Positions 4,865-63,176 of a stretch of 64,000 bases of DNA are shown here, piece after piece. Source of the DNA: a virus. Its lineage: Duplodnaviria; Heunggongvirae; Uroviricota; Caudoviricetes. Within the stretch, counting starts at the first letter, position 1. The number at the start of each line of letters is the position of its first letter. The DNA lies in the IMG/VR virus record IMGVR_UViG_3300042544_001887; one strand, 5' to 3'. The notes below the pieces were generated by a model. The model searched no databases, was not told the DNA's origin, and was given only the letters and a program-made list of their open reading frames with translations. The translations under genes and the position numbers were made by a program.

Positions 4865-4941
4865 GCTCTCGTAGCTCAATGGATTAGAGCGTCGGTCTAC
4901 GAAACCGAAGGTTAGAGGTTCGAGTCCTCTCGAGAGTGCCA
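4865..4941 (+). tRNA. tRNA-Arg (ACG)
   Basis: acceptor gctctcg/cgagagt, loop ctACGaa, T-loop ttcgagt, CCA. Confidence 0.7.
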
Positions 4942-5919: not shown

Positions 5920-6047
5920 GGCTAGGAGACTATTTGCATTGTGCATCGTGGGGCCTTTGTGTAGTAGACTGTTTCGTCTAACGGAGAGGACGCCGGTGGA
6001 GATCCGGAGATACAGGTTCGAGTCCTGTAGCAGTTTTGCTCCTAGCC
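5920..6047 (+). ncRNA. tRNA-like small RNA (128 nt, 9-bp terminal stem, internal T-arm-like hairpin)
   Basis: ggctaggag/ctcctagcc stem; acagg-ttcgagt-cctgt hairpin; does not fit cloverleaf, no CCA. Confidence 0.3.
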
Positions 6048-9936: not shown

Positions 9937-10020
9937 GTCGCTGTGGTGTAATGGTAGCCACGACAGCTTGAGGTGCTGTTGCCGCAAGGCGTGGGAGTTC
10001 GAATCTCCCCAGCGACACCA
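9937..10020 (+). tRNA. tRNA-Leu (GAG), type II
   Basis: acceptor gtcgctg/cagcgac, loop ttGAGgt, long variable arm, T-loop ttcgaat, CCA. Confidence 0.7.
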
Positions 10021-29463: not shown

Positions 29464-30918
29464 ATGACAAACGTACTAAATCTACTAACTGCTATTATTC
29501 GCACTGACAGCTATAAGCTGAGCCAGTGGCTACAATATCCAAAGGACACTGTCCGTATTAGTTCATACATCGAAAGTCGTGGTGGCGAAGACGAATCGGT
29601 ATTCTTTGGTCTACAAGCGTTCATTAAACAGTATATGATGACACCGATTACTGTAGCAGATATCAATCGTGCTGAACTTATTGTAAAAGCACACGGACTG
29701 CCTTTCAACAGAGAAGGTTGGGAAATCATCGTCAAAGAATACGGCGGCATTCTGCCGTTGGAAATCGAAGCTGTTCCTGAAGGTACCGTTATGGAGACCC
29801 ATAACGTGCAAGTGCAGATTGTTAATACCGATCCACGCTTGTTCTGGTTGACCTCATATGTTGAAACTGCAATGCTTCGCGGCATTTGGTATCCTTCAAC
29901 TGTTGCTACAAAGAGCCGTAAAATGAAGAAACTCATTGCTGCTGCTCTTGAACTAACTAGCGACGTTCCTGTTAACGATCAAATCATGTTCAAGCTACAC
30001 GACTTTGGTGCTCGTGGTGCAAGTTCTTCTGAAACTGCAATGCTTGGTGGTATGGGTCACCTTGTTAACTTTATGGGTACTGACACTGTGGAAGCACTTG
30101 TTGGTGCAATGGAATATTACAACACAGACTCTGTACCTGGGTTTAGTATTCCTGCTAGTGAACACTCAACAATCACTAGCTGGGGTGGTCCTGCTGGAGA
30201 AGTTGTAGCATTTGAAAACATGATCAATACATTTGCCGGTCCCGGTAAACTGTATGCTTGTGTTAGCGACAGCTACGACATTTACTCTGCCGCACGTGAC
30301 TTGTGGGGCGGCGTTCTAAAAGAAAAAGTCATTGCTGCCGGCGGCACCTTGGTGGTACGTCCGGACTCAGGTGATCCTACTACAGTTCCGATTGAAGTTA
30401 TTGGCATCCTTATGGATCGCTTTGGATACACTGTTAACAGCAAAGGCTACCGAGTACTTCCTCCTTACATCCGTCTAATCCAAGGAGATGGTATCAACGA
30501 AAAAACTTTGCCTAAGATCTTGTCAAACATGGTTGAAGCAGGTTACAGCATTGATAACATTGCATTTGGTATGGGCGGTGGCTTGCTACAAGCGTGGAAC
30601 CGTGATACACTCAAGTATGCTATGAAAGCTAGTGCTAGACAGGATACTGAGGGTGTATGGCACGATGTCTTTAAAGATCCGATCTCAGACCGCGGCAAAG
30701 TGTCTAAAAAAGGTCGTCTTGGATTAGTTTATGAGTGCGGGATTGGAAACTGCGGTTATAGAACTCTTCCAAAGTCGGTTGCTGACAAAAAAGGCAACCT
30801 ACTGAGAACTGTATATCGCAACGGTGAACTCTTAATTGAGGACACTTTTGAAAATATTCGCAATCGTGCAAAACTTAAAGTGGAGGAATACACTCATGAT
30901 GTCGTTGAAAGATATTGA
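29464..30918 (+). CDS. nadV: nicotinamide phosphoribosyltransferase (NAMPT/NadV)
   Basis: N-terminal TDSYK motif, 484 aa, NAPRTase-family signatures. Confidence 0.9.
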   Translation: MTNVLNLLTAIIRTDSYKLSQWLQYPKDTVRISSYIESRGGEDESVFFGLQAFIKQYMMTPITVADINRAELIVKAHGLPFNREGWEIIVKEYGGILPLEIEAVPEGTVMETHNVQVQIVNTDPRLFWLTSYVETAMLRGIWYPSTVATKSRKMKKLIAAALELTSDVPVNDQIMFKLHDFGARGASSSETAMLGGMGHLVNFMGTDTVEALVGAMEYYNTDSVPGFSIPASEHSTITSWGGPAGEVVAFENMINTFAGPGKLYACVSDSYDIYSAARDLWGGVLKEKVIAAGGTLVVRPDSGDPTTVPIEVIGILMDRFGYTVNSKGYRVLPPYIRLIQGDGINEKTLPKILSNMVEAGYSIDNIAFGMGGGLLQAWNRDTLKYAMKASARQDTEGVWHDVFKDPISDRGKVSKKGRLGLVYECGIGNCGYRTLPKSVADKKGNLLRTVYRNGELLIEDTFENIRNRAKLKVEEYTHDVVERY

Positions 30919-34250: not shown

Positions 34251-34340
34251 GGAGAGTTGGTTGAGCGGCCGATAACACTCGTCTACTAAACGAGCAGGGG
34301 GTAATGCCCCTCGTGGGTTCGAATCCCACACTCTCCGCCA
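34251..34340 (+). tRNA. tRNA-Ser, type II, apparent anticodon ACT (A34)
   Basis: acceptor ggagagt/actctcc, anticodon stem ctcgt/acgag with loop ctACTaa, long variable arm, T-loop ttcgaat, CCA. Confidence 0.6.
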
Positions 34341-35466: not shown

Positions 35467-35823
35467 TAGGTGACTATGAAAGGTTTGATTCCTTTGTACT
35501 ACTGGTGTAGCAAATTGGACGACAGTCCGCCAAGTTAGTACGTGTAAGTAGAGTCGAGCAATTGAATTATTCGATGCTGTGAAGTATTTCTAACAGCATT
35601 TGATGATTGTGCCATGTGGTAAAAAGATTGCTTACAGCTAGAAAAAAGCTGACTACAATAATACACGGTAATAGAAAAGACCAAATCTTTTTTAACATCG
35701 TGTATTTATAGAAAAAACTAGTGCAGGAGGATAACTCTGTAAGTCACAAGAACAACGGTGCCGCATGACTCAATTGCGGTTAAATTACCCGAGTAGTGCC
35801 GGGCAGAGCCAAACACACAATGT

Positions 35824-35899
35824 TCCTCGTTAGCTCAGTTGGTAGAGTATTTGACTGTTAATCAAAGTGTCGCTGGTTCGAGCCCAGCACGAGGAGCCA
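35824..35899 (+). tRNA. tRNA-Asn (GTT)
   Basis: acceptor tcctcgt/acgagga, loop ctGTTaa, CCA. Confidence 0.7.
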
Positions 35900-35966
35900 A
35901 AATTGAGAAGGGGATAAACACGGCAGTCTCATTGCGTAGCAACGGTGCCCTTTCTTTTAGAATAAT

Positions 35967-36043
35967 GCATCGGTATAGCTCAGCTGGTAGAGCAGCGGTC
36001 TCCAAAACCGCGTGTCCTGGGTTCGAATCCTAGTGCCGGTGCC
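35967..36043 (+). tRNA. tRNA-Trp (CCA)
   Basis: acceptor gcatcgg/ccggtgc, loop ctCCAaa, T-loop gttcgaatc; 3' CCA not encoded. Confidence 0.6.
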
Positions 36044-36051
36044 AAAAATAC

Positions 36052-36143
36052 GGATTGATGGGTGAGAGGCTTAAACCAGCAGATTGCTAATCTGTCGTAC
36101 CTTGTAAAGGGTACCGAGGGTTCGAATCCCTCTCGATCCGCCA
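36052..36143 (+). tRNA. tRNA-Ser (GCT), type II
   Basis: acceptor ggattga/tcgatcc, loop ttGCTaa, long variable arm, T-loop ttcgaat, CCA. Confidence 0.65.
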
Positions 36144-36154
36144 GAATAAGATAC

Positions 36155-36229
36155 GGGCTGTTGGTATAGTTGGGAACACAGTAGCTTTGCAAGCTTCAAT
36201 CACCGGTTCGAACCCGGTACGGTCCACCA
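36155..36229 (+). tRNA. tRNA-Ala (TGC)
   Basis: acceptor gggctgt/acggtcc with G3-U70 Ala identity pair, loop ttTGCaa, T-loop ttcgaac, CCA. Confidence 0.65.
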
Positions 36230-36236
36230 AAATAAT

Positions 36237-36280
36237 GCGGGATTAACTCAGTGGTAGATAAATACTTTAAATAGGAGATA
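36237..36280 (+). pseudogene. tRNA 5'-half remnant (duplicate of tRNA-Val 5' end)
   Basis: gcgggattaactcagtggtaga mirrors 5' end of tRNA at 36693; 3' half replaced by HNH gene RBS and ORF. Confidence 0.4.
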
Positions 36281-36288
36281 CTCTACCA

Positions 36289-36702
36289 ATGGCTAAAACG
36301 TTCAACTGTTTAAATTGTAGTAAAGAAAGTAAATGGAGTTATAGCAGCACTAACAAGTATTGCAGCGGCGATTGCTTTCAAGAACACAAATGGAAAACTG
36401 TAAAAAAACTTGAAGTAGAAGCAGGGTTAGTCAATGACGGAAGCCCTGCGTTAAAAAAATACCTTGTTGAAACAAAAGGTGAATGCTGTGAAGAGTGCAA
36501 AGTTGGCACTGTTTACAACGGAAAGCCATTAACACTAACTGTTGATCATATTGATGGTAATAGTGATAATAACTTTCCAGGCAACCTTAGACTTTTATGT
36601 CCTAATTGTCACAGTCAAACTGAAACATACAAAGGACGAAACAAAAAGAATAGTGCTCGTTCTCGATATATGAGAAAGTATAGAGATAATTTGCGGAATT
36701 AG
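36289..36702 (+). CDS. HNH homing endonuclease
   Basis: CxxC...CEECK...HIDGNSDNNFPGNLRLLCPNCH HNH motif; AGGAG RBS; embedded in tRNA cluster. Confidence 0.8.
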   Translation: MAKTFNCLNCSKESKWSYSSTNKYCSGDCFQEHKWKTVKKLEVEAGLVNDGSPALKKYLVETKGECCEECKVGTVYNGKPLTLTVDHIDGNSDNNFPGNLRLLCPNCHSQTETYKGRNKKNSARSRYMRKYRDNLRN

Positions 36703-36767
36703 CTCAGTGGTAGAGCAGGGGTTTTACACACCTCAGGCCGGGAGTTCGACCCTCTCATTCCGCACCA
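36693..36767 (+). tRNA. tRNA-Val (TAC)
   Basis: acceptor gcggaat/attccgc, loop ttTACac, T-loop ttcgacc, CCA; 5' end overlaps HNH stop. Confidence 0.7.
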
Positions 36768-36769
36768 AG

Positions 36770-36871
36770 TTTAGACTGGATATAATCACCCCTTGTGAGG
36801 GTGGCCCAAGGACTCAGTAACGAGATACAGCGAAGGGTTGTTGGTCAAGGCTGCAAACAGCCCAGTCTAAA
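36770..36871 (+). ncRNA. structured spacer RNA closed by 10-bp stem (tttagactgg/ccagtctaaa)
   Basis: perfect long-range stem with internal hairpins (cacccttgtgagggtg, ggctgcaaacagcc). Confidence 0.35.
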
Positions 36872-36878
36872 GCAATAC

Positions 36879-36967
36879 GGACACTTGGCAGAGATGGATT
36901 ATTGCACCGGTCTTGAAAACCGACGAACCGCAAGGTTCCCAGGGTTCGAATCCCTGAGTGTCCGCCA
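36879..36967 (+). tRNA. tRNA-Ser (TGA), type II
   Basis: acceptor ggacact/agtgtcc, loop ctTGAaa, long variable arm, T-loop ttcgaat, CCA. Confidence 0.65.
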
Positions 36968-37043
36968 TAAGCACACTAGCATCAGGCTAGTCCAGACCGT
37001 AAGGTTAACGGTGACAAGCGGGGAGAGACCCGCACAAAAATAC

Positions 37044-37120
37044 GGCCTGTTAGTCGAGTGGTTTAAGATGCCTGCCTGTCACGCAGGAGATGATGGGTTC
37101 AATTCCCATACAGGTCGCCA
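37044..37120 (+). tRNA. tRNA-Asp (GTC)
   Basis: acceptor ggcctgt/acaggtc, stem cctgc/gcagg loop ctGTCac, T-loop ttcaatt, CCA. Confidence 0.7.
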
Positions 37121-37135
37121 AATTGAAAGGAAGGC

Positions 37136-37233
37136 TCATAGTTTACGTTTAGCCCGTTACGACGGTTTGGGCGGAAAATGGTTGAGTCACGGCACGGGCG
37201 GGTCGGGGGCTGCGTGACGGCATTGAACTATGA
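37136..37233 (+). ncRNA. structured spacer RNA closed by 8-bp stem (tcatagtt/aactatga)
   Basis: long-range stem plus GC-rich hairpin gtcacg...cgtgac. Confidence 0.3.
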
Positions 37234-37272
37234 AGCAGTTGTCGGTCTGCGTTAACAAACACCGTCAAAATT

Positions 37273-37346
37273 GCGGGTATGGTGTAGCGGTAACATGCGA
37301 GCCTTCCAAGCTCTTGTCACGAGTTCGAATCTCGTTACCCGCTCCA
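37273..37346 (+). tRNA. tRNA-Gly (TCC)
   Basis: acceptor gcgggta/tacccgc, loop ctTCCaa, T-loop ttcgaat, CCA. Confidence 0.7.
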
Positions 37347-37371
37347 ATTTATCCGTATGTGAGAGGACAAT

Positions 37372-37638
37372 ATGAAAACAGAAGATGAAAAGAGAGAATT
37401 TTACGAGCGTTGCTCCTCTATGTTAGGAATAGCTCACGTTTACAACACGCCAGTTCCACGACGCAATAGATGGAACGCAAGACGACTGGGCAACGGACGT
37501 TATCCAGGATTTGGACTAATACAGTGCTACGGAAACGGAGCAAGAGTAGTTAGTCGACAAGGAACACGTATGTTTTATACATACGAAGCAGTTTATGAAT
37601 ATTTGCAGATTGTGCTTGACGCAACTGCAAAAGCGTAG
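37372..37638 (+). CDS. hypothetical protein inside tRNA cluster
   Basis: 88 aa, GAGAGGACAATATG RBS. Confidence 0.45.
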   Translation: MKTEDEKREFYERCSSMLGIAHVYNTPVPRRNRWNARRLGNGRYPGFGLIQCYGNGARVVSRQGTRMFYTYEAVYEYLQIVLDATAKA

Positions 37639-37736: not shown

Positions 37737-37812
37737 GTCGCGTTAGCAAAAGGTTAATGCGTGTCCTGTGCAAAGGACAAGGACGGTGGTTAAACTCCCC
37801 GACGCGACTCCA
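37737..37812 (+). ncRNA. atypical tRNA-like gene (perfect acceptor+CCA, 8-nt anticodon-position loop, degenerate T-arm)
   Basis: acceptor gtcgcgt/acgcgac, D-stem gca/tgc, stem tgtcc/ggaca with loop tgtgcaaa, no TTC T-loop. Confidence 0.35.
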
Positions 37813-39772: not shown

Positions 39773-39847
39773 GCGGGCGTAGCTCAGGGGTAGAGCGTCA
39801 CCTTGCCAAGGTGAATGTCGTGGGTTCGAATCCCATCGCCCGCTCCA
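39773..39847 (+). tRNA. tRNA-Gly (GCC)
   Basis: acceptor gcgggcg/cgcccgc, stem tcacc/ggtga loop ttGCCaa, T-loop ttcgaat, CCA; preceded by 10-bp hairpin 39745-39768. Confidence 0.7.
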
Positions 39848-39865
39848 ATTGTTGAAAGATATTGT

Positions 39866-40447
39866 ATGAGTAAAATAGAGCACTTTTATCATCTTCCGCA
39901 CTTCGAAGAAGAATGGTTTACATATTCGGCTTTATATTCTGATATGGTAGCTAAATTTCCATCCGGAAGTAAGTTTGTTGAAGTCGGTTGTTGGAAGGGA
40001 AGATCTGCTGCTTATATGTGTGTAGAAATTGCTAATTCAAAAAAAGACATTGATTTTTATTGTGTTGACTTTTGGCATGTATCAGCAGAGCATGAAATAG
40101 AAGAACCCCATCTAAAAAATTTGTATGAAATTTTTCTTTCTAATATGAAACCAGTTGAAGCTTTTTATAAGCCAATGAAAATACCGTCGTCTGATGCTGC
40201 AAAAAAATTTAAAGACGAAAGTTTAGATTTTGTTTTTATTGATGCTGGACATCAATACGATGAAGTAAAAGATGATATTCTTGCATGGTATCCAAAAATT
40301 AAAAAAGGTGGCATACTAGCAGGACATGATTTTTATCCAACTGAGCCAACTTGGGGAGATGTTTCTAAAGTAGTAAACGAACTTTTTCCAAATAATTATG
40401 AAGTTTTAATAGAACAAAGTTGCTTTCTAGTAAATAAGCCGGTATAG
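39866..40447 (+). CDS. class I SAM-dependent methyltransferase (CmcI/TylF-like)
   Basis: VEVGCWKGRSAAYM motif I-like, FIDAGHQYDEV, GGILAGHDF; stop overlaps next tRNA. Confidence 0.5.
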   Translation: MSKIEHFYHLPHFEEEWFTYSALYSDMVAKFPSGSKFVEVGCWKGRSAAYMCVEIANSKKDIDFYCVDFWHVSAEHEIEEPHLKNLYEIFLSNMKPVEAFYKPMKIPSSDAAKKFKDESLDFVFIDAGHQYDEVKDDILAWYPKIKKGGILAGHDFYPTEPTWGDVSKVVNELFPNNYEVLIEQSCFLVNKPV

Positions 40448-40511
40448 CTGAGTGGTTTAGCAGCTGATTAGTAATCAGCTGACGGGAGTTCGATTCTCTC
40501 TACCGGCACCA
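40438..40511 (+). tRNA. tRNA-Thr-like, apparent anticodon AGT (A34)
   Basis: acceptor gccggta/taccggc, stem gctga/tcagc loop ttAGTaa (part of 10-bp perfect palindrome), T-loop ttcgatt, CCA. Confidence 0.55.
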
Positions 40512-41376: not shown

Positions 41377-42138
41377 ATGAATTATCACATAAAAAACTTT
41401 ATTATCCCTATACATGTCTTATTTTTAGTATCACTAATTGGTATGTATTTAAATATAATCGATTTTCATATTTGGTTATTTTTAATAGGGTGGACTTTGA
41501 TCTATGGGCTAGGTCTTGTTGTAGGATTTCATAAATTGTTATCCCATAGCTCTTTTAAAACAAACAAATACATATCTTATGTGTTAGCTTACTTAGGATG
41601 CTTAGGAATTAGCGGATCACCTATATGGTGGGCTGCTATACATAGAGGACATCATCATGCTCATACTGAGACTGAAAAAGACCTTCAAAGTCCACGTCGT
41701 GGATGGCTTACATCTTACATAGGTTGGCAGTTTGGTGAAGAAACAAGTAAAATAAGTTTAAAGTATGCATCTGATTTAATAAAAGATCCTTTTTATCTTT
41801 TTTTACACAAGAATTATAGATTAGTTGTTTGGAGTACAGTGATTATTGTTGGTATGTTGTCACCATCTGTTGCAGTTTCATTATTAATATTTCCGATGAT
41901 TGCAGCACACCATGGAGAAAATATTACCAATTCATTTGGTCATAGCAGGTTTGCTGGTTACAGAAATTTTAATACCAACGACGACACTATAAATAACCCA
42001 TTGTTAGCATTTATAACTTGGGGTCAGCTTTTGCATAACAATCATCATGCTAAGCCAAATAACGATAGTTTTGCCATTAAATGGTTTGAATTTGATCCAA
42101 CTTCTCCTTTTGTATGGATTTTAAAAAAACTAAAATAG
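41377..42138 (+). CDS. membrane fatty-acid desaturase (stearoyl-CoA desaturase-like)
   Basis: three His boxes HKLLSH, HRGHHHAH, HNNHHAKP plus TM helices. Confidence 0.75.
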   Translation: MNYHIKNFIIPIHVLFLVSLIGMYLNIIDFHIWLFLIGWTLIYGLGLVVGFHKLLSHSSFKTNKYISYVLAYLGCLGISGSPIWWAAIHRGHHHAHTETEKDLQSPRRGWLTSYIGWQFGEETSKISLKYASDLIKDPFYLFLHKNYRLVVWSTVIIVGMLSPSVAVSLLIFPMIAAHHGENITNSFGHSRFAGYRNFNTNDDTINNPLLAFITWGQLLHNNHHAKPNNDSFAIKWFEFDPTSPFVWILKKLK

Positions 42139-42269: not shown

Positions 42270-43370
42270 TTAGTAACTTAACTGCAATAATCAACAGTTT
42301 AGCGAAAGGCTAAAGATTGTGGTTGTGCTGAGTAATTAACAGTTTAAATCAGCAAGTGATGCGTGATTAGGTAAACTGTTGTTTATTGCAGTTTTTAAGA
42401 TGGGCGGCTTAGCGTCCACGTAAGGGTAAGTGCGGTAACGCACCCAAAGGCAGGTTTCCTATAAACTGCCGCCAGCAATGGTCCACCTAAGCAAGCCTGA
42501 ACTAAGGTTGACTCGGTTTAACCCGAAAGCAACCTCCGTCCTTAGGCGGGCGGTAGGCAGTAAGTTAGAGTTGTAGTCCGAAAGGATAGGCACAGAGCCG
42601 GTCGGTGAGTGCTAAGAGGCTGTGGTGGCTGAACTGCAACATACCAAACTAACGAATGCTGAAGGTTAACAGGTAGCTACACTGTCTGAGCCCGCAAGCA
42701 AAGGCATGGTAGCATCACAAGAGTGGAAGGGTTAGGCCCCGGATACTTGAAGTGACGTTGAGTAGCTCGCAAGGCAAAAGACAGTCGGTGTGTTGTATAC
42801 TGTATCTAACAAGGTATGGTGCAACTGGGACAGCACATCGAAGTAGGTTCGCAATATTGCATAACGGTAATGCAATCGTCTTATGAAACGATGGATTGTA
42901 GGTTCAACTCCTACTATTGAAACAAAAGCGAAAGACTGTCCCGGTACGTTGTGAAAGGTGGTTAATGCCACACTCGCAAGAGAATGTGGTCTACGGATGC
43001 TCGCAAGGCTGATGTAGTTGTTCGGAAAGATAGCGTAAGGGTTTAGCGACTCTGAACTGCTCGCAAGGCAGACGAAGGATAGAAGGACGAGTAGCAACGT
43101 GCGACGAGAGAAACGCCACTCTCCAAAAAAGGCACCACTGGGAGATACAGGATGACCGTAAAAGGCTTCTGTGGATAACGAGAGAACGTGGCTCGCAAGG
43201 CTAACGGTAATGCTCAAAGGCTCCTAACGCAAGGCATAATCTCAGCCTATGCAAAAGTTTAAGTTTTAACTAACTTAACTTGTTGAACAGTTTTCGAGTT
43301 CCGACCCACTTGGAAGTAGGCGACTACTCCATTTCCGAGACTGTTCAACTAGTTAAGTTTCTACTTTAAA
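42270..43370 (+). ncRNA. large structured non-coding RNA candidate (about 1.1 kb, ORF-free, GNRA-rich)
   Basis: no credible ORF on either strand; seven cgcaag motifs, four as GCTCGCAAGGC; many local and long-range stems; lies between boxA leader and tRNAs. Confidence 0.4.
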
Positions 43371-43925: not shown

Positions 43926-43955
43926 TTGACTAGGACTTGCAAACTGTTATACTAT
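43926..43955 (+). promoter_or_regulatory. sigma70-like promoter
   Basis: TTGACT-N18-TGtTATACT. Confidence 0.4.
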
Positions 43956-43975
43956 CTGCAATCAGAGGAGATACT

Positions 43976-45301
43976 ATGCGAACACAACCTGACTTTATTA
44001 TTCGTGATCTTGAAAATCACAATAGTCGCCTTGATAAAGAGGCAATTCTTGCTGACGCAGTTAAAGAAGGACTAAACGAGTTTTTTGATGGCGTTCGTAT
44101 GGCCCTCGACTCACTAGTTACATTTGGTGTAAAACAGGTGCCGATTAAAGAGAAGGATGAAGGACAAGGGTTGGCTTGGACGGTGTTTTTGCATCTTGCA
44201 AACGACCTTCAGTATCGTAATCTAACTGGTCATGCAGCACGTGATGCAATCAATCTTGCTATGGAGGTTGCTACACAACGTCAGTGGAACGATTGGTACC
44301 GTCGTATTCTTATTAAGGATCTACGCTGCGGTGTTTCAGAAAAAACTGTTAATAAAGTTTGCAAAAATCATCCGCAATATCAGGTTCCGGTTTTTGAATG
44401 TCAACTTGCACATGATAGTGCAAATCATGAAGACAAAATGAAGGGCAAAAAACAAATCGAAGTCAAGCTCGACGGCGTTCGTGTAATTACTGTGATCAAC
44501 GACATTCACGGCAAAAGCATCGAAATGTTTAGCCGCAACGGCAAACAGTTTCATAACTTTGATCACATCATTGAAGAAATTCGTGCTGTGCTCAAAGACA
44601 ATCCCACTCCATATCCGCTTGTTCTAGATGGCGAAATTATGAGTGCTACGTTTCAAGATCTTATGAAGCAAGTGCAGCGTAAGTCGAACGTAAACGCAAA
44701 AGATGCAGTGCTAAACTTGTTTGATATTATTCCACTTGGTTGTTTCAAGAATAAGAAGTGGGACAAGCCACAGAACTTCCGTAGTGAACTTGTTAATCAT
44801 TGGGTAGAAGACCATGCAGAGACGCTACAGCACGTTACAGCACTAGGTTGGGAAACTGTAGATCTAGACACAGCAGAAGGCTATCGACGCTTTGTAGAGC
44901 TTAATAAGACGGCTGTAGACGGTGGGTATGAGGGCGTTATGATCAAGGACGTGGATGCACCCTATGAATGTAAACGTAGCCATAGTTGGCTTAAAGCAAA
45001 ACCATTTATTGAAGTAACATTGGAGATTGTAGGAGTTGAAGAAGGAACAGGACGAAATGAAGGAAGACTCGGGGCTATGGTATGCTCTGGGCAAGATGAC
45101 GGGAAGGATATTAGGGTCAACGTTGGCAGTGGTTTTACAGATGATCAACGATCCCAATTTTGGAATGCTCGGGATGCTGCTATTGGTAATCTTGTTGAAG
45201 TTCGGGCAGATGCTGTAACACAGAATCAAGACGGCACTTACAGCCTACGATTTCCACGTTTTAAAACGTTCCGTGGTTTTGAGAAGGGTGAAAAACTATG
45301 A
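43976..45301 (+). CDS. ATP-dependent DNA ligase (T4-type)
   Basis: KxDGxR adenylation motif EVKLDGVRVI; AGAGGAGATACTATG RBS. Confidence 0.85.
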   Translation: MRTQPDFIIRDLENHNSRLDKEAILADAVKEGLNEFFDGVRMALDSLVTFGVKQVPIKEKDEGQGLAWTVFLHLANDLQYRNLTGHAARDAINLAMEVATQRQWNDWYRRILIKDLRCGVSEKTVNKVCKNHPQYQVPVFECQLAHDSANHEDKMKGKKQIEVKLDGVRVITVINDIHGKSIEMFSRNGKQFHNFDHIIEEIRAVLKDNPTPYPLVLDGEIMSATFQDLMKQVQRKSNVNAKDAVLNLFDIIPLGCFKNKKWDKPQNFRSELVNHWVEDHAETLQHVTALGWETVDLDTAEGYRRFVELNKTAVDGGYEGVMIKDVDAPYECKRSHSWLKAKPFIEVTLEIVGVEEGTGRNEGRLGAMVCSGQDDGKDIRVNVGSGFTDDQRSQFWNARDAAIGNLVEVRADAVTQNQDGTYSLRFPRFKTFRGFEKGEKL

Positions 45302-52329: not shown

Positions 52330-55300
52330 ATGGCACAACAGATAGTTAATATTGGCGTAGAAGGAAATGACGGTACTGGTGATAGTATTCGTGAATCCTT
52401 TCGTAAAGTTAATGAAAATCTCAACGAACTTTACGCAGTATTTGGACTTGGCGGCCAAATTAGCTTTACAACACTAGGCGATGTGCCACAAGAGTATGTT
52501 GTAGGACAAGATGAAAATAAAGTTTTACTTGTTAACAACGATGCATCTGGAATATCTTTCTATTCATTTGTTTCTGACGCTGGCACAAATGATCCACTAG
52601 ATCCTGCTAACACTGTTGCATTTTCTGTTGCTGATGGTAAATTAACAATTAGAACTGTTAACACTAAGTTAAGTCAAGATCCGGCACCTTTTACTATACA
52701 ACCTGTAAAACTAGGTGCAGCAATTGCATACGACAACACAACTCAAGCCAGATTGTTAGATACAGCAAGCATCAACTTGCTTATTAACGACTGGAATACT
52801 GTACACGGTTCAGGAAGTCCAATTTCCGCAGACAACTTACTTGTAAGTAAAGGTTATACTGATGCAAATTACTTACAGCCTTCTGGACCTATACGTGTTA
52901 GAGAAGAACCAACTAGCTTTGCAGAATATACAAAAACTATTGATAGTTTTACTAGCGGAAATGCTGTAATTACAGATCACGGATTTAACAGTGGTATTAA
53001 CGGAGTTGGATTTTTATACAACAGTACCGGTACCAATGCAACACCTTTATTAGAAAATGTTAATGCAGTTAGTTTTGTTTCCGGAAGAACATACGAAATT
53101 GTAACTGTAGGAGATACAAATTGGTCTGCTATAGGAGCATCGACATATGAAGTAGGAGATCGATTTGTTGCAACTGGTGTAGGTTCTGGGACCGGTGTTG
53201 CTGCGGCAGTTTACTTTGTAAGATATGTCAATTCTACTCAACTAAGTTTCCATTATACAATTGCAGATGCTAAATCAGGATCAAACAAGATTTCTCTTAG
53301 CGGCGGATCTGGAACACAAACTATAACCGATACCGGAATAAACAACTTACTAGATGGTTATTGGTTAGAAAACGAAGCAGTTCCAAGAAAAGCAACTGTT
53401 CGTCGTCAAGGGGATACAATGCAAGGTCCACTTTACCTTGCAGACCATCCATACCCTTTTAATGGTGTAGGTACTCCTAACACAGAATTTGACTTACAGG
53501 CTGCAACTAAGTTATATGTTGACTCTTCGTCATTTGCAAGTATTATTAACTTATTTGTAGCTACATCCGGGTCTGACGTTCAACCTAACACACCTCCAGG
53601 TAAAACTGGAAGATCGTTTAGCTATGCATACAGAACAATATCAGCCGCTTGTCAAAAAGCAGAAAGATTGCAATTAGCAAGTGAACCAGAATTAGGACCG
53701 TATGTACAAACTATAACTTTCGGAAGTGGTGCTACAAATGCAACAGTTAATAGTACTCCTGGATATAACACAGATGTTGATCAAGACCTAGTAGTTTCGA
53801 CTATAAATAGTCAAAAATCATCAATCATTGACGCAGCAATTGCAGCAGTTAACGCTGAATATCCTACATTTATTTTTGATGAAAATCAATGGAGAGATGA
53901 CTTAGAGTACATACTCGATGCTATTAACTTAGACATACAAGCAAGTGTATCTAGCGGAACTAAACACAACTATCTATCAAGATATGCAGGATTAAGATAT
54001 TTTAGAAATCCTACTACAGAAATAGCAGTTGATACAAATGGTCAGTATACTCAAACATCCTATGCTATTACACAAGCTCGTGCTGCAACAGTTGCAGAAT
54101 TAGTTTCTGCATCAATACTTGAAAGTACAGAATGGAACGATGCAGTCAAAGACTTGTTCGAGGTAGTACTTGATGTTATTAATCCAAGTGTTAGCGATCC
54201 GGCACTTGTTGAAAGTACAAACTATTATACATTTAGAATCAATAGCGGCCCAAGTAGTTACGTTGACCAAGCTATTTCAACTAATCCCGACATTTTTCCT
54301 GGAAAATTAATAAGAGGAAAAACATCAGGTGCAATAGGAAGAATTGTTACATATACTAGAGGTGAAGACATTGTTGGAACTCCTACTTATGACGAAGTAA
54401 CCATGCAACTTCTTGCACCTATAGAATTCAGTCTAACTGAAGAACTAGAATATGGCAACTTATCTAACATTCAACAAGTTACAATCAATGTTGAAACTGG
54501 TATTTACGAAGAGCATTTGCCAATACGTGTTCCTAACAATACATCTATCATAGGCGACGACTTTAGAAGAACTATTGTGAGACCAGCAGCTGGACCAAGC
54601 CAATCACCTTGGGCTGATATATGGTTTTATAGAGATGCTGACATTGACGGCAATATAACTGCTTCTGGAGGATTAGAAGGAAAGTACGGAAGCGATAGCA
54701 CATTAGTTGGCTATTATGGACATCACTATTTAACTGATCCAAGTAATGCTAATAGTACACCTAAAAACAATAACGAACTAGACATGTTTATGATGAACGA
54801 CGGTACTATTTTACGTAGTTTAACATTTCAGCGACATGGAGGATTCGGTGTTGTACTAGATCCCGAAGGACAAATACTTACACGATCACCATTTATACAA
54901 TCATGTTCGAGTTTTTCTAGAAGTAGAAATGCTAAAGCCTTTACCGGTGGTGCGTACATTGACGGGTATAGTGGAAACATGTCTGTTAGAGTAGTTGGAA
55001 AAAACGGAAACTTCGAAGTTGACGTTGAAACACCAACATATACAGCTCTAGGTATTCGTAGACCAACATTGCCAACTAGCTTTTTTATCGACGGAGTAAG
55101 ATATCAAGTTAATGCAATTAAAGATTATGAACCGTCTGCTGTAAGTGTCGACGGATCAACAACTGTTGCAAAAGCAACACTTATACTCGACGAAACCAGT
55201 AACGAAGGCAACGGGTTAACTGTTTCAGTTGTAACAAATAGCCAGTATTTTGATATCACATTATTAACAGGCGGTAATAAATCCGTTCTTGCAAACGACT

Positions 55301-58300
55301 TTACAAACTTAAATGACTTAGGATATGCCGTTGTAGCAAATAACAATGCTACCACCGAACTCGTTTCGGTATTTACATATTACTGTCATATAGGCTATTA
55401 TGCGTTAAACGGATCTCAAATTAGATCTTTAACAGGAAATAACAGCTACGGAACATTTGGTCTTGTAGCAGAAGGATCAGATCCTGACGAAAAAGCATCA
55501 ACTGTTATACTAACTCAAGACTTGGCTCAACCTGTAAAAATTTATAACGTTGATCAGATTGTTGAATTAACTGGTACTAGCCTTGGAATTTTAGATGGCG
55601 ACACGCTAACACAAGTTCAAGGTGCAATAAGTGTAACCGGTGTTGTTGCATACACAGAAGAAAGCGGCGGAAACACATTTGCATATTTACAAACATTAGT
55701 AAATGGTGCATTTAATGCTATTGACAGTGTAACTACATACGGAGTTCCAGAATCTGTAGACAACTTAGGATATACTGCAAACGAAGAAGACTCATCGTTA
55801 TTTGTTTTCGATCTAACATTTTATCCTATGAACGGTGCCGAGGTTGAAATATTACACTCAACTGGGTTGTATTATCCATATGGTGTTATATCGGCGTCAT
55901 CAACAGACATAGAAGTTCCTGTAGCATATTGCGACTCGACTAATACAGCAATAAGAAGAAAAGTTTGGAGACTAGATTTATCAAGCGGCGTTTCTGCAGG
56001 AGCATCGGGCGTACAAGTTAATACTACATTTGGTACTTTTGGAAATTACAGAGATAAACAGAGCTTCTTGCTTGATGGATTGCCTGCGTCACTGTCAACT
56101 AGACCTAGTACTGCATTGGTTTTTGATGAGCAACCTACACAAACTTACAGAACTATTTCGTTTGATAACACTATTGTTTCTGCCATTCCAACTCCTGCAG
56201 GAGTTAAAAGAATTGGTATTGATGCAAACTACGATGCTATTGATCTGACTGTTAGTAACCTTTATGCAGGAGATGCAAACTTAGATACCGCTATAGGAAC
56301 TATGGGTGCTAATGCCGGCGATACTATGATTGCTATAGAATTGCTTGATGCCGGTGATGTAAATAGAATCAACAACGGCAACATGATATTTACATGGGCA
56401 GGTGTAACTCACAGAATTACAGAATACGAAGTAGATTCAAGTGGAGCATACGGTGTAGTTAAGTTTACTGATTTATATAGTATTAACGATGCCTATACAA
56501 GTGGGCTTGCTTCGCGAGCTGATAATACTATAGGAAGTACAAACACACTTAAAGCTGTTTTAAGAGCAAATGAAACAGCAAATATTACTGTAAATATTTC
56601 TACAACTCGTGCAACCAGCCACGACTTCTTATACATTGGTACAGGCGGCTACAACAGTACAAATTATCCAAACAGAATTTATGGTGCACCGACTAGCGAT
56701 TGGGTATCAGACGAACAAGCAATTGACGAGAATGGTACTAGCAGTAAAGCACAAGTTCAAGAAAGATTAAAAGGACGTTGCTTCTTTTCAAGTACAGACC
56801 AAGATGGTTTCTTCCGTGTAGGACGTTTCTTTACAGTTGACCAAGGTACTGGCTCTGTTACTTTTAACGCTTCTCTTGTATTAACTAATATCGATGGTAT
56901 CGGTTTTAAACGTGGTGTTAGAGTTAACGAATTTAGTCCCGACGACAGTTTTACAGATGCAAAAGGCGATGCAGTACCAACAGAAACAGCAACCGAAGGC
57001 TATATTAACCGTCGCCTTGGCTGGAACCGTAATGGCACTAATCTCGATCCTGGCGATATAATAAGTAGTGGAGCACTTAGACTCGACGGCGGCAACTCCA
57101 TGGCTGGCGAATTAAACATGGGTTCCAACAAAATTACAAACGTTGCAACGCCAACAAACGGAACAGATGCTGTTAACAAAGATTATGTTGATGCAAATAA
57201 CGAATTGAGTGAACTTGTGGACGTTGCTATTGCTACACCAGTAGAAGGCCAAGTGTTAACATATGTAGGCGGAGCAACTAATAAATGGGTTAACGTACCT
57301 TTTGACACTAGTGCAGCTACTACAGACATTACATTTAGCTATACATCAGGTGAACTAAGAGCAGCAATTGCATCTGAAGTAATCATGGATGCAGATGTTA
57401 ATTTAAATGCTGGTATTCAACAACGCAAATTAAGTATGAATGCTGCAACTACTAGAGCAAATGCTACTGGTATTACACAGGCAGATTTAGGGCTTGCAAG
57501 TTTTAATAGCAGCGTGTTTACATCAACAGATGGATGGTTAACAGTTAGTACTAGCGGTATTACAAACGCAATGTTAGCAGGGTCTATTGCAAATAACAAA
57601 CTTTCAAATAGTTCTATAACATTCGGTGACGGTTCTACTACTAGTGCAGTATCGTTAGGTGGAACTTTAACAGTACAAGGTACAGCAAACGAAGTTGAAG
57701 TTGGATACAGTGCCGGCGTATTTACTGTAGGGTTACCATCTACTATAACAGCAACACTAAGTGGAAATGCATCGAGTGCTACAGTTGCAACTACGACAAC
57801 TATTACAGCAAAAAATACTGACGCAGCACCAAACTTTATTACTTTTGTTGCTAGTCAGTCTGGAAACTTGTCAACATTTACCGACAGCGGATTAACTTGG
57901 ACCCCTACTACTAACACTCTTGGATTTACAACTGGTTTAATTACAGGCCTAAATAAAGCTACATTTAGCGGTGCTACAACTGTTAATGAAATTATACTGC
58001 CTACAAATCTTTCAGATGCATTAACTATAAGAGATAACGCAGGTACAGCAGTTGACATTTTAGATATAACAACCACTACTGGTGCTCCGTCATTTAACGT
58101 TAAAACAAACATGACCATCACTGGTAATATACTTCCGGGTGCAAACAGTCCAACTGATAGTGGTCAAATGCTAGGTGGTAGTGGAAATCGATGGAATACT
58201 GTTTATGCAACTACCTTTAACGGTACTGCAACAGAAGCACTATACGCCGACTTAGCTGAAAACTATCTAGGAGATGCAGACTATGAACCAGGAACAGTTC

Positions 58301-58623
58301 TAGTATTTGGCGGAAATTGTGAAGTTACACTAACTAATGTAAAAGGTGATCGCAGAGTTGCCGGTGTTGTAACTACAAATCCTGCACACTTAATGAACAG
58401 TGCGTTAGAAGGTGATTTTGTAACTGGAATAGCACTACAAGGCCGTGTTCCTGTTAAGGTATTGGGTAGAGTACAAAAAGGTGATCTAGTTGTTACAAGT
58501 GCAATACCAGGGTATGGCATAGTTGATAATGACCCACGGGTTGGCACTGTTATAGGTAAAGCAGTTGCTGAAAAATTAGATGACGGTAAGGGCGTTGTCG
58601 AAGTAGTAGTAGGAAGAGTATAA
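52330..58623 (+). CDS. giant tail fibre protein (2097 aa) with C-terminal intramolecular-chaperone-like domain
   Basis: N-terminal NIGxxxNDGTGDxxRxxFxKxNxNxNELY module shared with downstream genes; Gly/Ser/Thr/Asn-rich repeats; C-terminal ALYADLAENY...GDLVV resembles S74 autoproteolytic chaperone. Confidence 0.6.
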   Translation: MAQQIVNIGVEGNDGTGDSIRESFRKVNENLNELYAVFGLGGQISFTTLGDVPQEYVVGQDENKVLLVNNDASGISFYSFVSDAGTNDPLDPANTVAFSVADGKLTIRTVNTKLSQDPAPFTIQPVKLGAAIAYDNTTQARLLDTASINLLINDWNTVHGSGSPISADNLLVSKGYTDANYLQPSGPIRVREEPTSFAEYTKTIDSFTSGNAVITDHGFNSGINGVGFLYNSTGTNATPLLENVNAVSFVSGRTYEIVTVGDTNWSAIGASTYEVGDRFVATGVGSGTGVAAAVYFVRYVNSTQLSFHYTIADAKSGSNKISLSGGSGTQTITDTGINNLLDGYWLENEAVPRKATVRRQGDTMQGPLYLADHPYPFNGVGTPNTEFDLQAATKLYVDSSSFASIINLFVATSGSDVQPNTPPGKTGRSFSYAYRTISAACQKAERLQLASEPELGPYVQTITFGSGATNATVNSTPGYNTDVDQDLVVSTINSQKSSIIDAAIAAVNAEYPTFIFDENQWRDDLEYILDAINLDIQASVSSGTKHNYLSRYAGLRYFRNPTTEIAVDTNGQYTQTSYAITQARAATVAELVSASILESTEWNDAVKDLFEVVLDVINPSVSDPALVESTNYYTFRINSGPSSYVDQAISTNPDIFPGKLIRGKTSGAIGRIVTYTRGEDIVGTPTYDEVTMQLLAPIEFSLTEELEYGNLSNIQQVTINVETGIYEEHLPIRVPNNTSIIGDDFRRTIVRPAAGPSQSPWADIWFYRDADIDGNITASGGLEGKYGSDSTLVGYYGHHYLTDPSNANSTPKNNNELDMFMMNDGTILRSLTFQRHGGFGVVLDPEGQILTRSPFIQSCSSFSRSRNAKAFTGGAYIDGYSGNMSVRVVGKNGNFEVDVETPTYTALGIRRPTLPTSFFIDGVRYQVNAIKDYEPSAVSVDGSTTVAKATLILDETSNEGNGLTVSVVTNSQYFDITLLTGGNKSVLANDFTNLNDLGYAVVANNNATTELVSVFTYYCHIGYYALNGSQIRSLTGNNSYGTFGLVAEGSDPDEKASTVILTQDLAQPVKIYNVDQIVELTGTSLGILDGDTLTQVQGAISVTGVVAYTEESGGNTFAYLQTLVNGAFNAIDSVTTYGVPESVDNLGYTANEEDSSLFVFDLTFYPMNGAEVEILHSTGLYYPYGVISASSTDIEVPVAYCDSTNTAIRRKVWRLDLSSGVSAGASGVQVNTTFGTFGNYRDKQSFLLDGLPASLSTRPSTALVFDEQPTQTYRTISFDNTIVSAIPTPAGVKRIGIDANYDAIDLTVSNLYAGDANLDTAIGTMGANAGDTMIAIELLDAGDVNRINNGNMIFTWAGVTHRITEYEVDSSGAYGVVKFTDLYSINDAYTSGLASRADNTIGSTNTLKAVLRANETANITVNISTTRATSHDFLYIGTGGYNSTNYPNRIYGAPTSDWVSDEQAIDENGTSSKAQVQERLKGRCFFSSTDQDGFFRVGRFFTVDQGTGSVTFNASLVLTNIDGIGFKRGVRVNEFSPDDSFTDAKGDAVPTETATEGYINRRLGWNRNGTNLDPGDIISSGALRLDGGNSMAGELNMGSNKITNVATPTNGTDAVNKDYVDANNELSELVDVAIATPVEGQVLTYVGGATNKWVNVPFDTSAATTDITFSYTSGELRAAIASEVIMDADVNLNAGIQQRKLSMNAATTRANATGITQADLGLASFNSSVFTSTDGWLTVSTSGITNAMLAGSIANNKLSNSSITFGDGSTTSAVSLGGTLTVQGTANEVEVGYSAGVFTVGLPSTITATLSGNASSATVATTTTITAKNTDAAPNFITFVASQSGNLSTFTDSGLTWTPTTNTLGFTTGLITGLNKATFSGATTVNEIILPTNLSDALTIRDNAGTAVDILDITTTTGAPSFNVKTNMTITGNILPGANSPTDSGQMLGGSGNRWNTVYATTFNGTATEALYADLAENYLGDADYEPGTVLVFGGNCEVTLTNVKGDRRVAGVVTTNPAHLMNSALEGDFVTGIALQGRVPVKVLGRVQKGDLVVTSAIPGYGIVDNDPRVGTVIGKAVAEKLDDGKGVVEVVVGRV

Positions 58624-62600: not shown

Positions 62601-63176
62601 GTTGAACTAAAAGATCCTGCAAAACCAACATCAGGAAAAACTAGAACATTCTTTAATACACTTAATATGACTGGTAAGATAACTGCTGACAGCATTCGCT
62701 ACGAAGCAAACGACGACACGTTTAAAAATGATGATAAAAGTCCTTGGAGATTTAGACCAAACACAAATACTATAACTGCTGATAGCAACGCAGTTAATGT
62801 ATCTCAAAATAGAGATAGTAAAAAATATATTTCAAATATCGATAACATGCGAGATCGTATAAGAGAAATGGAAATTAACGAAGACGACAGTACAAACAGA
62901 CTTGCTAAAACAAGTAGAGACTTTTTACCTTTATGGATGAGAACTGCTCAGGGTAGTAGTTTTTCTGAAATAGATTATGTATTAGCACTACCGTTAGTTT
63001 ACTGTAAACCGGGTCAATCTGAGATCATAAAGGATAATATAATTAATTATATGTCAACTACAGGATTTTCGTTTACACAACTAGATTTTGACATTGATAG
63101 ATACATTATAGATACCACAACTGGCAACAGCCAAGAACAATATATTCTATTCGCAAATTATACATTTAACGTTTAA
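59616..63176 (+). CDS. large structural protein with cadherin-like/putative-Ig repeats
   Basis: repeated SGSLPxGLxLxxNxIxG motifs (at least 6). Confidence 0.5.
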   Translation: MLPQWTVPTNTTLARIPENAIVYLPLPLDPTVVATTSIISGSLPQGLTLANNIITGSPFPVNEVTVNTFVVRASNSSGVLDRTFSIYIENYPTWTAENNYDFGIFEERNTIDIPLPISNVQSLSTSVISGSLPPGLRLVENRIKGTILEVARDTIFTFVIRANLGGAVLDRTFVMTVQGPDNPQWVTPEGKLPVGSNEALFILDNSLINYQLVATDTDLPAGDSLQYYIADGEGELPPGISLTTDGRITGIVDPILALDINADSGGYDVGQYGLYPFDFGIVSGSGLDTYYYDTKVYDYSVPTRAPKKLNRTYEFIVTVTDNVAFAKRKFSIYVVSDDFLRADNTIMKAADGVFTADNTYSRVPLWLTPSDLGIKRANNFITIYLDVLDTYTLEGDILFFQEPVNPGVYKLKSTGEIIENGSYEIGGVLPYFPKSNYQTTSILDFEVVYPESESKFPPGVTLDSETGEIAGIVPYQPAVTTDYRFTVRADRFDIGEGFVKVFGTYNAEVLSGNTRFRIAKLPRGTQDGIDDLQSLIGKEIPIEQRYYTVKNVFGDNEFWDEIEISAPLSPTPVATPITVKKSATTSQNYIFANTMLEADKKFYIGKSIRYSDLEYYPITAIYPYIEYKVYLDDSTVGIELVTNITGPVVGTIEETLESFLGSAELPAYVSSVSNIHGIVELTLVIPATSTNRNTNFIKSLFHTADSSPIILQEIDNYDRIQLSTPLSRSYSQTIQISFGTYTGGSFNVTFPRAEVDVASKKKTFTIKLLGEVDSTITWLTDSDLGTLNANRISTLFVKAETTVPNAVLIYNVVSGKLPYGLSLKNDGEIIGKVPINGTESSPGLTFFDSGNTTFDGATTTMDRVYNFTVLARDRFGFSAVSKEFTLVISDADNLTYSNIYMKPFLPTIQRELFLNLMDNAKVISPKLVYRPNDPSFGIQKDLKCLVFSGIETQNIEKFVGAAARNHKRKRYLLGDVKTAIAKKEGTNEVIYEIVYVELKDPAKPTSGKTRTFFNTLNMTGKITADSIRYEANDDTFKNDDKSPWRFRPNTNTITADSNAVNVSQNRDSKKYISNIDNMRDRIREMEINEDDSTNRLAKTSRDFLPLWMRTAQGSSFSEIDYVLALPLVYCKPGQSEIIKDNIINYMSTTGFSFTQLDFDIDRYIIDTTTGNSQEQYILFANYTFNV

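Follow-up and report, generated by a model that had tools for sequence, protein, structure and literature searches.

A free-standing HNH endonuclease gene upstream of tRNA-Val in a T4-like phage tRNA cluster, and a probable remnant of the tRNA gene formerly resident there

Endonuclease genes are known in phage tRNA clusters, among them T4 SegB and the HNH genes of the T5 tRNA region. SegB, a free-standing GIY-YIG enzyme encoded in the T4 tRNA cluster, cuts tRNA genes at a T-loop motif, acts on those of phages without segB and drives inheritance of the tRNA region, segB and the adjoining tRNA genes being inherited together; its stop codon overlaps tRNA-Arg, and processing was proposed to lower segB expression (PMC2330249). 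The sequence recognized is a universal T-loop motif, and SegB is widely tRNA-associated without isotype preference (PMC13096335). The tRNA-region HNH enzymes of the T5 group include F-TflI, F-TflII as well as F-TflIV (Akulenko et al. 2004, as cited in PMC2330249). The locus described below lies at positions 36237-36767 of a 64-kb stretch of IMG/VR virus record IMGVR_UViG_3300042544_001887 (Caudoviricetes). This whole stretch of 64,000 nucleotides is called the window; it holds 33 tRNAs identified with ARAGORN in two clusters, and the locus belongs to the second. Directly upstream of tRNA-Val(UAC), in what is a T4-like phage, the locus carries a gene for a free-standing HNH homing endonuclease preceded by a stub resembling the 5' end of a tRNA. 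Judged from the sequence, it is likely that this gene travels with the tRNA and that the stub is the scar of the resident tRNA gene.

Like segB, the gene is free-standing in a phage tRNA cluster and its stop overlaps the 5' end of the next tRNA. It differs in having the HNH instead of the GIY-YIG fold and in belonging to a family whose groups are tied to isoacceptors, whereas SegB has no isotype preference; stubs of displaced tRNAs do not form part of the SegB description consulted. By analogy, the element would work like SegB without being a member of that family. There is also a likeness to the elements of phages and integrative and conjugative elements (ICEs) that have their attP at tRNA 3' ends, which insert into a tRNA gene, preserve its function and leave a partial duplicate; in both cases function is preserved because the incoming DNA supplies replacement tRNA sequence. 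Those elements, however, use an integrase and produce a precise 3'-end duplication, while here there is no integrase, the stub is a 5' end, end points vary (15-29) and the whole allele appears to have been replaced. Three features described below seem less familiar, namely the isoacceptor grouping, the scars made of half-tRNAs and the physical linkage with a tRNA allele that has been recoded; no description of them was found in the literature searched, the coverage of which was incomplete.

The HNH gene and its family

The HNH gene occupies 36289-36702 (+), starts with ATG at 36289 and encodes 137 amino acids. It is intact and intergenic, between tRNA-Ala(tgc) at 36155-36229 (+; ARAGORN and Rfam) and the intact, HNH-linked allele of tRNA-Val(UAC) at 36693-36767 (+; complete by both programs), and lies outside any intron or intein. 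As originally predicted, the open reading frame (ORF) is preceded by an AGGAG Shine-Dalgarno (SD) sequence (36273-36277, +; 11 nt 5' of the ATG) and ends inside the 5' end of the tRNA, the TAG stop at 36700-36702 (+) being nucleotides U8-A9-G10 of tRNA-Val. The tRNA matched all 71 positions of the Rfam model (66.9 bits) and is complete without the stub. No intron RNA family was detected with Rfam in 36140-36800 at E up to 10. The earlier description of the gene as inserted in the tRNA cluster was thus right in that it stands among tRNA genes and wrong if taken as an intron-like insertion within a tRNA, since nothing is missing from the downstream tRNA and a group I intron was not detected. No other HNH gene was found among the 10 ORFs tested in the tRNA clusters of the window.

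The protein matched PF01844 with 25.2 bits (cut-off 21.4) over residues 67-110, and its best PHROG was phrog_10822 (E 5e-25); 24 of the 25 PHROG matches listed are HNH families. Residues C67, C70, D86, H87, N99, C104 and C107 are invariant among 12 homologs and H108 is nearly so; all are present in the window protein, which carries the family-invariant pattern CxxC...DHIDGNSDNNFP...CPNCH. Membership in the GIY-YIG (SegB-like) family was rejected, only HNH and zinc-ribbon profiles matching the protein. The nearest solved structure by profile was I-HmuI of phage SPO1 (PDB 1u3e, E 1.6e-4), an HNH homing endonuclease to which the likeness is confined to the nuclease core. I-HmuI is a nicking enzyme encoded in a group I intron and has different DNA-binding modules; the window HNH gene is, in contrast, free-standing. 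The ORF encodes an intact HNH endonuclease whose family behaves, in the tRNA clusters of phages, like free-standing homing endonucleases.

A full-length homolog was found in Tequintavirus HdH2 (gp177; 40% identity over 93% of the query). The T5 genes hegA (T5.075), hegC and hegD are likewise HNH genes in the tRNA region that overlap tRNA 5' ends. With hegA (227 aa) only the nuclease core aligned (48% over 52 aa, E 3e-13), with hegC there was only a marginal alignment (27%, E 0.005), and with hegD there was none. The likeness to the T5 group further consists of an HNH gene in a tRNA cluster, an ORF end that abuts or overlaps the next tRNA, and the presence/absence polymorphism between HdH2 and T5 described below; the difference is that hegC and hegD belong to another HNH subgroup and hegA is longer, with other domains. 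In the T5 record (L172; 5345-5979 and 6943-7607), hegD overlaps tRNA-Gln2(CUG), marked there as a pseudogene, by 23 nt and hegC overlaps tRNA-Ser2(GGA) by 14 nt.

Back-translated searches gave HNH homologs in 17 viral loci and 80 metagenomic ones, from candidates that number more than 576, and 92 distinct copies were examined; these loci and the other contigs compared are referred to by L numbers. A tRNA lies within 100 nt of 71 of these 92 and somewhere in the locus for 88. Among the 22 closest homologs (at least 47% identity), 17 lie within 300 nt of tRNA-Val(tac), which accounts for only 17 of the 177 tRNAs in those loci. More distant members are mostly beside tRNA-Thr(tgt) (19), Asn(gtt) (7) and Gly(gcc) (5). 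These associations divide the family into groups, linked with particular isoacceptors (Val-UAC, Thr-UGU and others). Its members are found in either orientation and may lie to either side of the tRNA; the arrangement of the window, with the HNH gene upstream on the same strand, is the commonest (16 of 29 HNH-adjacent Val genes), and divergent, convergent and downstream placements also occur. The ORF terminates inside the downstream tRNA in 20 of the 42 members that abut a same-strand tRNA.

The tRNA remnant and its counterparts

The orphan remnant, GCGGGATTAACTCAGTGGTAGA, occupies 36237-36258 (+) and corresponds to tRNA positions 1-22, comprising the 5' strand of the acceptor stem, the 5' strand of the D-stem and the D-loop. 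It is separated from the CCA end of tRNA-Ala by 7 nt, the usual spacing for the next tRNA gene in the cluster. The intact tRNA-Val begins with GCGGAATTAGCTCAGTGGTAGA (36693-36714), to which the stub is identical at 20/22 positions, with mismatches at tRNA positions 5 and 10. The repeat of about 22 nt of tRNA-Val noted from the sequence at the outset is therefore real, although its proposed end at 36280 was too generous, the tRNA similarity stopping at 36258. With up to 3 mismatches the 22-mer was found in the 64-kb window at these two sites only (0 expected from 100 shuffles). In a comparison with the 33 window tRNAs, tRNA-Val scored best (20/23) and Gly-gcc came next (18/23), so that the likeness to this neighbour is only moderately specific. 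The original prediction would have been refuted had the fragment been a functional tRNA; neither ARAGORN nor Rfam called a tRNA at 36237, so that it is not one.

An exact search for the stub 22-mer, with A or G at position 10, gave matches in 67 viral contigs. In 63 of them an intact tRNA begins with the 22-mer; 43 of these tRNAs are Val(tac) and 20 are Gly. The window version (A10) agrees at 22/22 positions with a tRNA-Val(tac) allele that 17 viral contigs carry and in which A10 pairs with U25; the match covers the allele-specific acceptor strand GCGGGAT as well as A10. Intact Val genes starting with GCGGGATTA were found in 37 distinct contexts, with an HNH homolog within 300 nt in 0/37 and none anywhere in the locus for 35/37, and a stub-type 5' end was present in 0/29 of the HNH-adjacent Val genes. 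Because the stub matches this other, HNH-free allele at 22/22 positions and its own neighbour at only 20/22, it is probably a remnant of a displaced resident gene and not a copy of the neighbour produced by a staggered cut; the target-site duplication of the adjacent tRNA that had been proposed is not supported in that wording. The best reading of the stub is that it represents the leftover 5' end of a resident tRNA-Val(UAC) allele displaced by an incoming cassette of HNH gene and tRNA. The broader claim that the upstream fragment is a footprint of the arrival of the HNH gene in a tRNA-Val gene is supported.

Relatives were informative on both the stub and its missing counterpart. In the related contigs L099/L100 a neighbouring ORF is 75% identical to that of the window, and the HNH protein of L099 is 80.6% identical to the window protein. 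L099 has a 5' stub (GCAGGATTGGCGCAGTGGTAGA, 2872-2893; 18/22 to the window stub), a leader identical to that of the window at 30/30 positions, the HNH gene, a tRNA-Val (3325-3399) identical to the window tRNA in core positions 8-45 with a different acceptor stem, and, 11 nt 3' of this tRNA, a 3' stub (3411-3442) that ends with CATTCCGCACCA and has the terminal sequence ATTCCGCACCA. The acceptor strand of this 3' stub is that of the window tRNA-Val and pairs with the window 5' stub; the L099 stub also has mutations that would break acceptor pairing. The last 10 nt of the 5' stub, CAGTGGTAGA, are conserved 10/10 between the window and L099, compared with 8/12 for the rest of the stub, and together with the leader they give 40/40. 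It had been stated that finding the same fragment in relatives without an HNH gene would speak against a homing footprint; the stub-bearing relative, L099/L100, also has the HNH gene. Of the HNH-less relatives compared, L101, with a neighbouring ORF 72% identical to that of the window, has no HNH gene in the 8 kb examined, and neither L098 nor L101 has an orphan stub in 8 kb; the intact tRNA-Val of L101 matches the stub in 21/22 of its first nucleotides. Two more paralogs of the HNH family are encoded in the same tRNA cluster of L099 (1531-1944 and 5266-5457; 33% and 48% identity to the window protein).

Paired stubs were not confined to L099. In L110/L144 the order is a 5' stub (positions 1-29, same allele family), a leader with TATAAATA, a 175-aa HNH gene, a different intact tRNA-Val and a 3' stub, the last 30 nt of which are the 3' end of the window tRNA-Val. 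In L020/21 (Val) and L041 (Gly-gcc), 5' and 3' stubs flank the HNH gene with an intact tRNA; the acceptor strands of the two stubs are mutually complementary at 7/7 positions but do not pair with the enclosed intact tRNA. Further 5' stubs stand directly before HNH leaders in L024, L045, L048, L054, L056, L057 and L060; stubs in antisense orientation lie against the 3' end of the HNH gene in L013, L029 and L079; and 3' stubs follow the HNH gene in L039, L066 and L075. The 5' stubs end at positions 15-29 and the 3' stubs begin at about 42-49, the anticodon arm always being missing, and at several independent loci the stub gives way to other sequence exactly where the conserved HNH leader starts. 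No duplicate of a locus's own tRNA-Val was found on the far side of the HNH gene in L001-L017, so stubs are usually not copies of the neighbour, and the search was redirected to a tRNA library. This library search is noisy, because the clusters are rich in tRNA-like fragments, also away from HNH genes, and in tRNAs that ARAGORN did not call; stubs were therefore counted only where they abutted an HNH leader or ORF end.

Searches for closer counterparts of the locus gave little. Megablast of 35700-37400 against phage genomes returned scattered tRNA matches only and no close cultured relative at the DNA level; an exact search of viral contigs with the window tRNA-Val core had no match; an exact search with the leader matched only the L099/L100 contigs; and an exact search for the tRNA-Ala end, spacer and stub, aimed at a syntenic empty or filled site, had no match.

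The HNH-linked tRNA itself is diverged. The window tRNA-Val differs from the HNH-free allele (GCGGGATTAACTCAGTGGTAGAGTAGCGCCTTTACACGGCGAATGTCGGGAGTTCGACCCTCTCATCCCGCACCA) at 13 positions (5/67, 10/24, 27-30/38-42, 44 and 46), mostly in the anticodon stem plus compensatory pairs, and the T-arm is identical. The same pattern, in which the endonuclease-linked target differs from the endonuclease-free allele, was seen for tRNA-Thr in HdH2. There, gp177 abuts tRNA-Thr and its stop overlaps position 1 of that tRNA; T5 has the same flanking genes, about 95-99% identical, without the HNH gene, and its tRNA-Thr differs from that of HdH2 at 13 positions (5, 16, 20, 27-29, 31, 39, 41-44 and 63). The HdH2 tRNA-Thr thus appears to have a recoded anticodon stem plus one or two other positions. 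In the phage-collection records, about 306 had the empty T5-type junction and about 8 the HNH junction, and in 243 the match to the HdH2 junction was confined to its tRNA part, with 80-90% identity. In the lineage of the window, presence and absence are represented by L099, which has the HNH gene, and by L098 and L101, which lack it and have their tRNA-Val placed elsewhere. The anticodon-stem differences presumably confer cleavage resistance on the HNH-linked allele. A consistent difference between all HNH-linked and all HNH-free Val anticodon arms was also sought and rejected; none exists across the family, and only the pairwise comparison of related alleles is informative.

Leader hairpin and other features of the window

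The gene content of the phage is T4-like (rIIA, RnlA, NAMPT, DNA ligase), and the leader of the HNH gene resembles a T4 type of control. T4 genes such as I-TevI, e and soc combine an early hairpin with a late promoter; the hairpin, with a late promoter of TATAAATA type in its loop, sequesters the ribosome-binding region, and only late transcripts are translated. This late-promoter/early-hairpin translational control was reportedly described by Gott et al. in 1988 (cited in PMC2330249). In the window, the sequence diverges from the tRNA after position 22, giving a leader of 30 nt (36259-36288, +). The predicted fold has a 5' arm UGGUAGA (36252-36258, +), which is the D-loop end of the remnant, and a 3' arm UCUACCA (36282-36288, +), which abuts the start codon and is supported by family-wide arm covariation as well as by the fold. 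The loop contains the SD sequence and a late-promoter-like motif of T4 type, GATAAATA (36257-36264, +), a putative promoter. The likeness to the T4 control is that the window and the HNH family leaders have a hairpin over the SD and AUG with a TATAAATA-like motif between the arms; the difference is that the D-loop of a defunct tRNA gene provides the 5' arm in the window and that the motif is GATAAATA. No TATAAATA hairpin leader was seen in HdH2, a further difference from the T5 group.

In the family leaders, (T)ATAAATA typically stands in the loop and the SD and AUG at the 3' arm, and the arms vary yet stay complementary. The longest pairing run averaged 7.7 bp for cognate arms and 5.3 bp for non-cognate arms, and runs of at least 6 bp were present in 91% and 38%, respectively. 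The exact motif ATAAATA was found 12-40 nt 5' of the ATG in 33 of 87 distinct family leaders, a strong enrichment, and TATAAATA occurs 10 times in the window (5.3 expected), several times just upstream of ORFs. GGTAGA is both tRNA positions 17-22 and the start of the leader hairpin of the cassette; in L039 the leader GGTAGATAAATAC...TCTACCAATG has no tRNA stub before it. The presence of GGTAGA in both the stub D-loop and an L039-type leader points to a microhomology join at the left junction. In many family leaders (L001-L099 set) the arms are GGTAGAGC/GCTCTACC, that is, the tRNA D-loop with the 3' strand of the D-stem and its complement.

Under the proposed control, the D-loop of the stub would serve as the 5' arm of a hairpin whose loop contains the SD sequence and whose pairing lies beside the AUG and extends into it. 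Transcripts starting late from GATAAATA in the loop would lack the 5' arm and so should be translatable. Expression may also be limited at the other end of the gene: as the HNH stop lies inside the tRNA, RNase P processing of tRNA-Val would remove it together with the last three sense codons.

Several other features were recorded. In the second tRNA cluster, 42785-43248 (+) is a GOLLD RNA (Rfam RF02032; 191.8 bits, gathering score 150), within which falls the ARAGORN call 'tRNA-??? (tatg)' at 42850-42923 (Rfam tRNA, 44.8 bits). An extra tRNA missed by ARAGORN lies at 2241-2322 (+; Rfam 35 bits) and is Tyr-like by blast against the tRNA library. The tRNA at 37737-37812 (+) has an unassignable anticodon loop ('gc'); L098, L099 and L101 have tRNA-Cys(gca) there. 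Unusual A or G at position 34 was noted in Ser(act), Thr(agt), Arg(acg) and two Leu(gag) tRNAs (34251-34340, 40438-40511, 4865-4941, 5966-6037 and 9937-10020). The tRNA spacers 36771-36872 and 36996-37035 contain structured-looking elements; a long-range inverted repeat, TTTAGACTGG...CCAGTCTAAA, lies between tRNA-Val and tRNA-Ser(tga), and the spacer motif gacaagcggggagagacc recurs in L098 (about 3510-3535). An ORF with a methyltransferase domain (PF13578) at 39815-40447 (+) has its predicted start inside tRNA-Gly(gcc) (39773-39847), and its real start is probably further downstream. Genes for rIIA (11772-13910), an RnlA-type RNA ligase (21523-22680), nicotinamide phosphoribosyltransferase (29464-30918), a fatty-acid desaturase (41377-42138) and an ATP-dependent DNA ligase (43937-45301) were identified. 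Two very large ORFs lie at 52330-58623 (+; 2097 aa) and 59616-63176 (+; 1186 aa), and the 1186-aa protein had no PHROG match at E 1e-10.

Alternative explanations and proposed history

The stub might be the product of tandem duplication and decay, two Val genes having once stood side by side and the HNH gene having landed between them, or an unrelated deletion having occurred, in which case the stub would say nothing about cleavage. Degenerate tRNAs, paralogous tRNAs and many tRNA-like fragments remote from HNH genes do occur in clusters of this kind; in L098 two tRNA-Ala genes are neighbours, and in L148 a stub is fused to an intact Val gene with no HNH gene present. This explanation is nevertheless considered unlikely. 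In L099, L110/L144, L020/21 and L041 complementary 5' and 3' stubs bracket the HNH gene and an intact tRNA, and mutually complementary stubs in such positions argue for insertion into one gene and not for decay of a tandem copy; moreover, at several independent loci the stub junction lies exactly at the conserved leader start, and the allele type of the stub was never found intact next to an HNH gene of this family. Even less probable is an explanation in which the stub arose or was kept because it functions within the HNH leader, forming one arm (5') of a regulatory hairpin, with tRNA likeness being secondary. The pairing of UGGUAGA in the stub with UCUACCA beside the AUG fits it, as do the 40/40 conservation of CAGTGGTAGA and leader against 8/12 in the remaining stub, the GGTAGAG(C)...(G)CTCTACC hairpins that other members have without further tRNA sequence, and the family-wide covariation of the arms. 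Stub positions 1-15, however, lie outside the core stem and still match a real tRNA-Val allele at 15/15, and the stub stands at tRNA-gene spacing after tRNA-Ala. Leader function accounts for retention of the 3' end of the stub and not for its origin, and in this respect it complements the displacement of a resident gene.

Two further possibilities are given very little weight. The stub could be the 5' exon of a split tRNA whose D-loop is interrupted by an ORF-bearing group I intron or other intervening sequence and which is spliced to the downstream body. Group I introns of phages often contain HNH ORFs, and introns of this group can be found in bacterial tRNA genes. A new intron insertion site in tRNA genes of Patescibacteria is reported in a 2025 preprint. 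This reading was rejected because the downstream tRNA-Val is complete alone and no intron family matched in the region searched; in addition, the HNH family occurs in both orientations and on either side of the tRNA, and the mutations in the L099 stub would break acceptor pairing. That the stub is Val-like by chance, only through generic D-arm similarity, is comparably improbable: Gly-gcc of the window reaches 18/23 and the D-arm of tRNA-Trp has an equal score in local alignment, yet the 22/22 allele match includes the acceptor strand GCGGGAT and A10, no match is expected in shuffled sequence, and the same stub with the same junction recurs in the related phage L099. Chance similarity was ruled out on the shuffles and the allele match.

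Some observations weigh against displacement of a resident tRNA-Val gene by the HNH cassette, or against parts of it. The stub 22-mer also opens some tRNA-Gly genes (20 of the 63 intact matches); as 22 nt fit Val or Gly alike, assignment of the stub to Val rests on context, the 3' stubs of L099 and L110 ending in ACCA and being Val-like. The window has no 3' stub. In L148 (- strand, about 9930 in reverse-complement coordinates) a 26-nt Val 5' stub from the allele family of the window stub runs directly into another, intact tRNA-Val, and the locus lacks an HNH gene; this is a scar without endonuclease, and it follows that stubs can arise or persist without a resident HNH gene. A syntenic empty site (Ala-Val-Ser(tga) without HNH) was not found among relatives, and in the HNH-less L098 and L101 the tRNA-Val has other surroundings. 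No systematic difference in the anticodon arm runs through the family, the HNH-linked L024 and the HNH-free L098 nearly sharing this arm. The window hairpin is weak alone (-11.4 kcal/mol, z -1.0) and statistically unremarkable, so that support for it comes from the family covariation, and GATAAATA agrees with the T4 late-promoter consensus at 7/8 positions.

With displacement of the resident gene as the preferred reading, the following history is proposed. The ancestor would have had a resident tRNA-Val allele (5' GCGGGAT..., 3' ...ATTCCGCACCA) 7 nt after tRNA-Ala. An HNH enzyme of the family would have cut this gene, most likely in or near the anticodon arm, and the break would have been repaired from a donor carrying leader, HNH gene and tRNA-Val. 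On the right side, repair could have used tRNA homology, either recombining within the tRNA or with a donor allele that shared the acceptor stem; the present tRNA-Val may come from the donor throughout or be a hybrid. On the left side, homology upstream of the HNH gene being absent, the ends would have been joined through the 6-nt GGTAGA, stranding tRNA positions 1-22 as the stub. The functional tRNA-Val would now be the HNH-linked allele with its recoded, presumably cleavage-resistant anticodon stem. Between collinear phages, such as T5 and HdH2, homing would be clean; between phages with nothing but the tRNA in common, illegitimate joining at one end or at both would leave stubs.

A wider proposal, put forward tentatively and with slightly less than even confidence, is that the HNH family consists of isoacceptor-specific cut-and-replace drives, each recognizing the anticodon-arm region of one tRNA type and physically coupled to a recoded escape allele of that tRNA; on entry into phages that lack flanking homology, one-sided homologous repair and microhomology would destroy the resident gene and leave half-tRNA scars. 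If so, the turnover and shuffling of phage tRNA clusters and the diversification of their alleles would be driven in large part by such elements, the stubs would provide a base-level map of the cut positions of each nuclease, and the scar in the window would also have been recruited as an arm of the element's own translational switch. The predictions are that the cut falls in or near the anticodon arm and that resistance arises by compensatory recoding of the anticodon stem. For annotation, short tRNA-like stubs beside HNH genes would be treated as scars and not as genes, and such ORFs may legitimately end in the next tRNA. An anonymous ORF and an odd 22-nt repeat would thereby become a dated molecular event, in which a tRNA gene was invaded and the replacement tRNA was brought along, and this suggests how tRNA repertoires may be reshuffled between unrelated phages.

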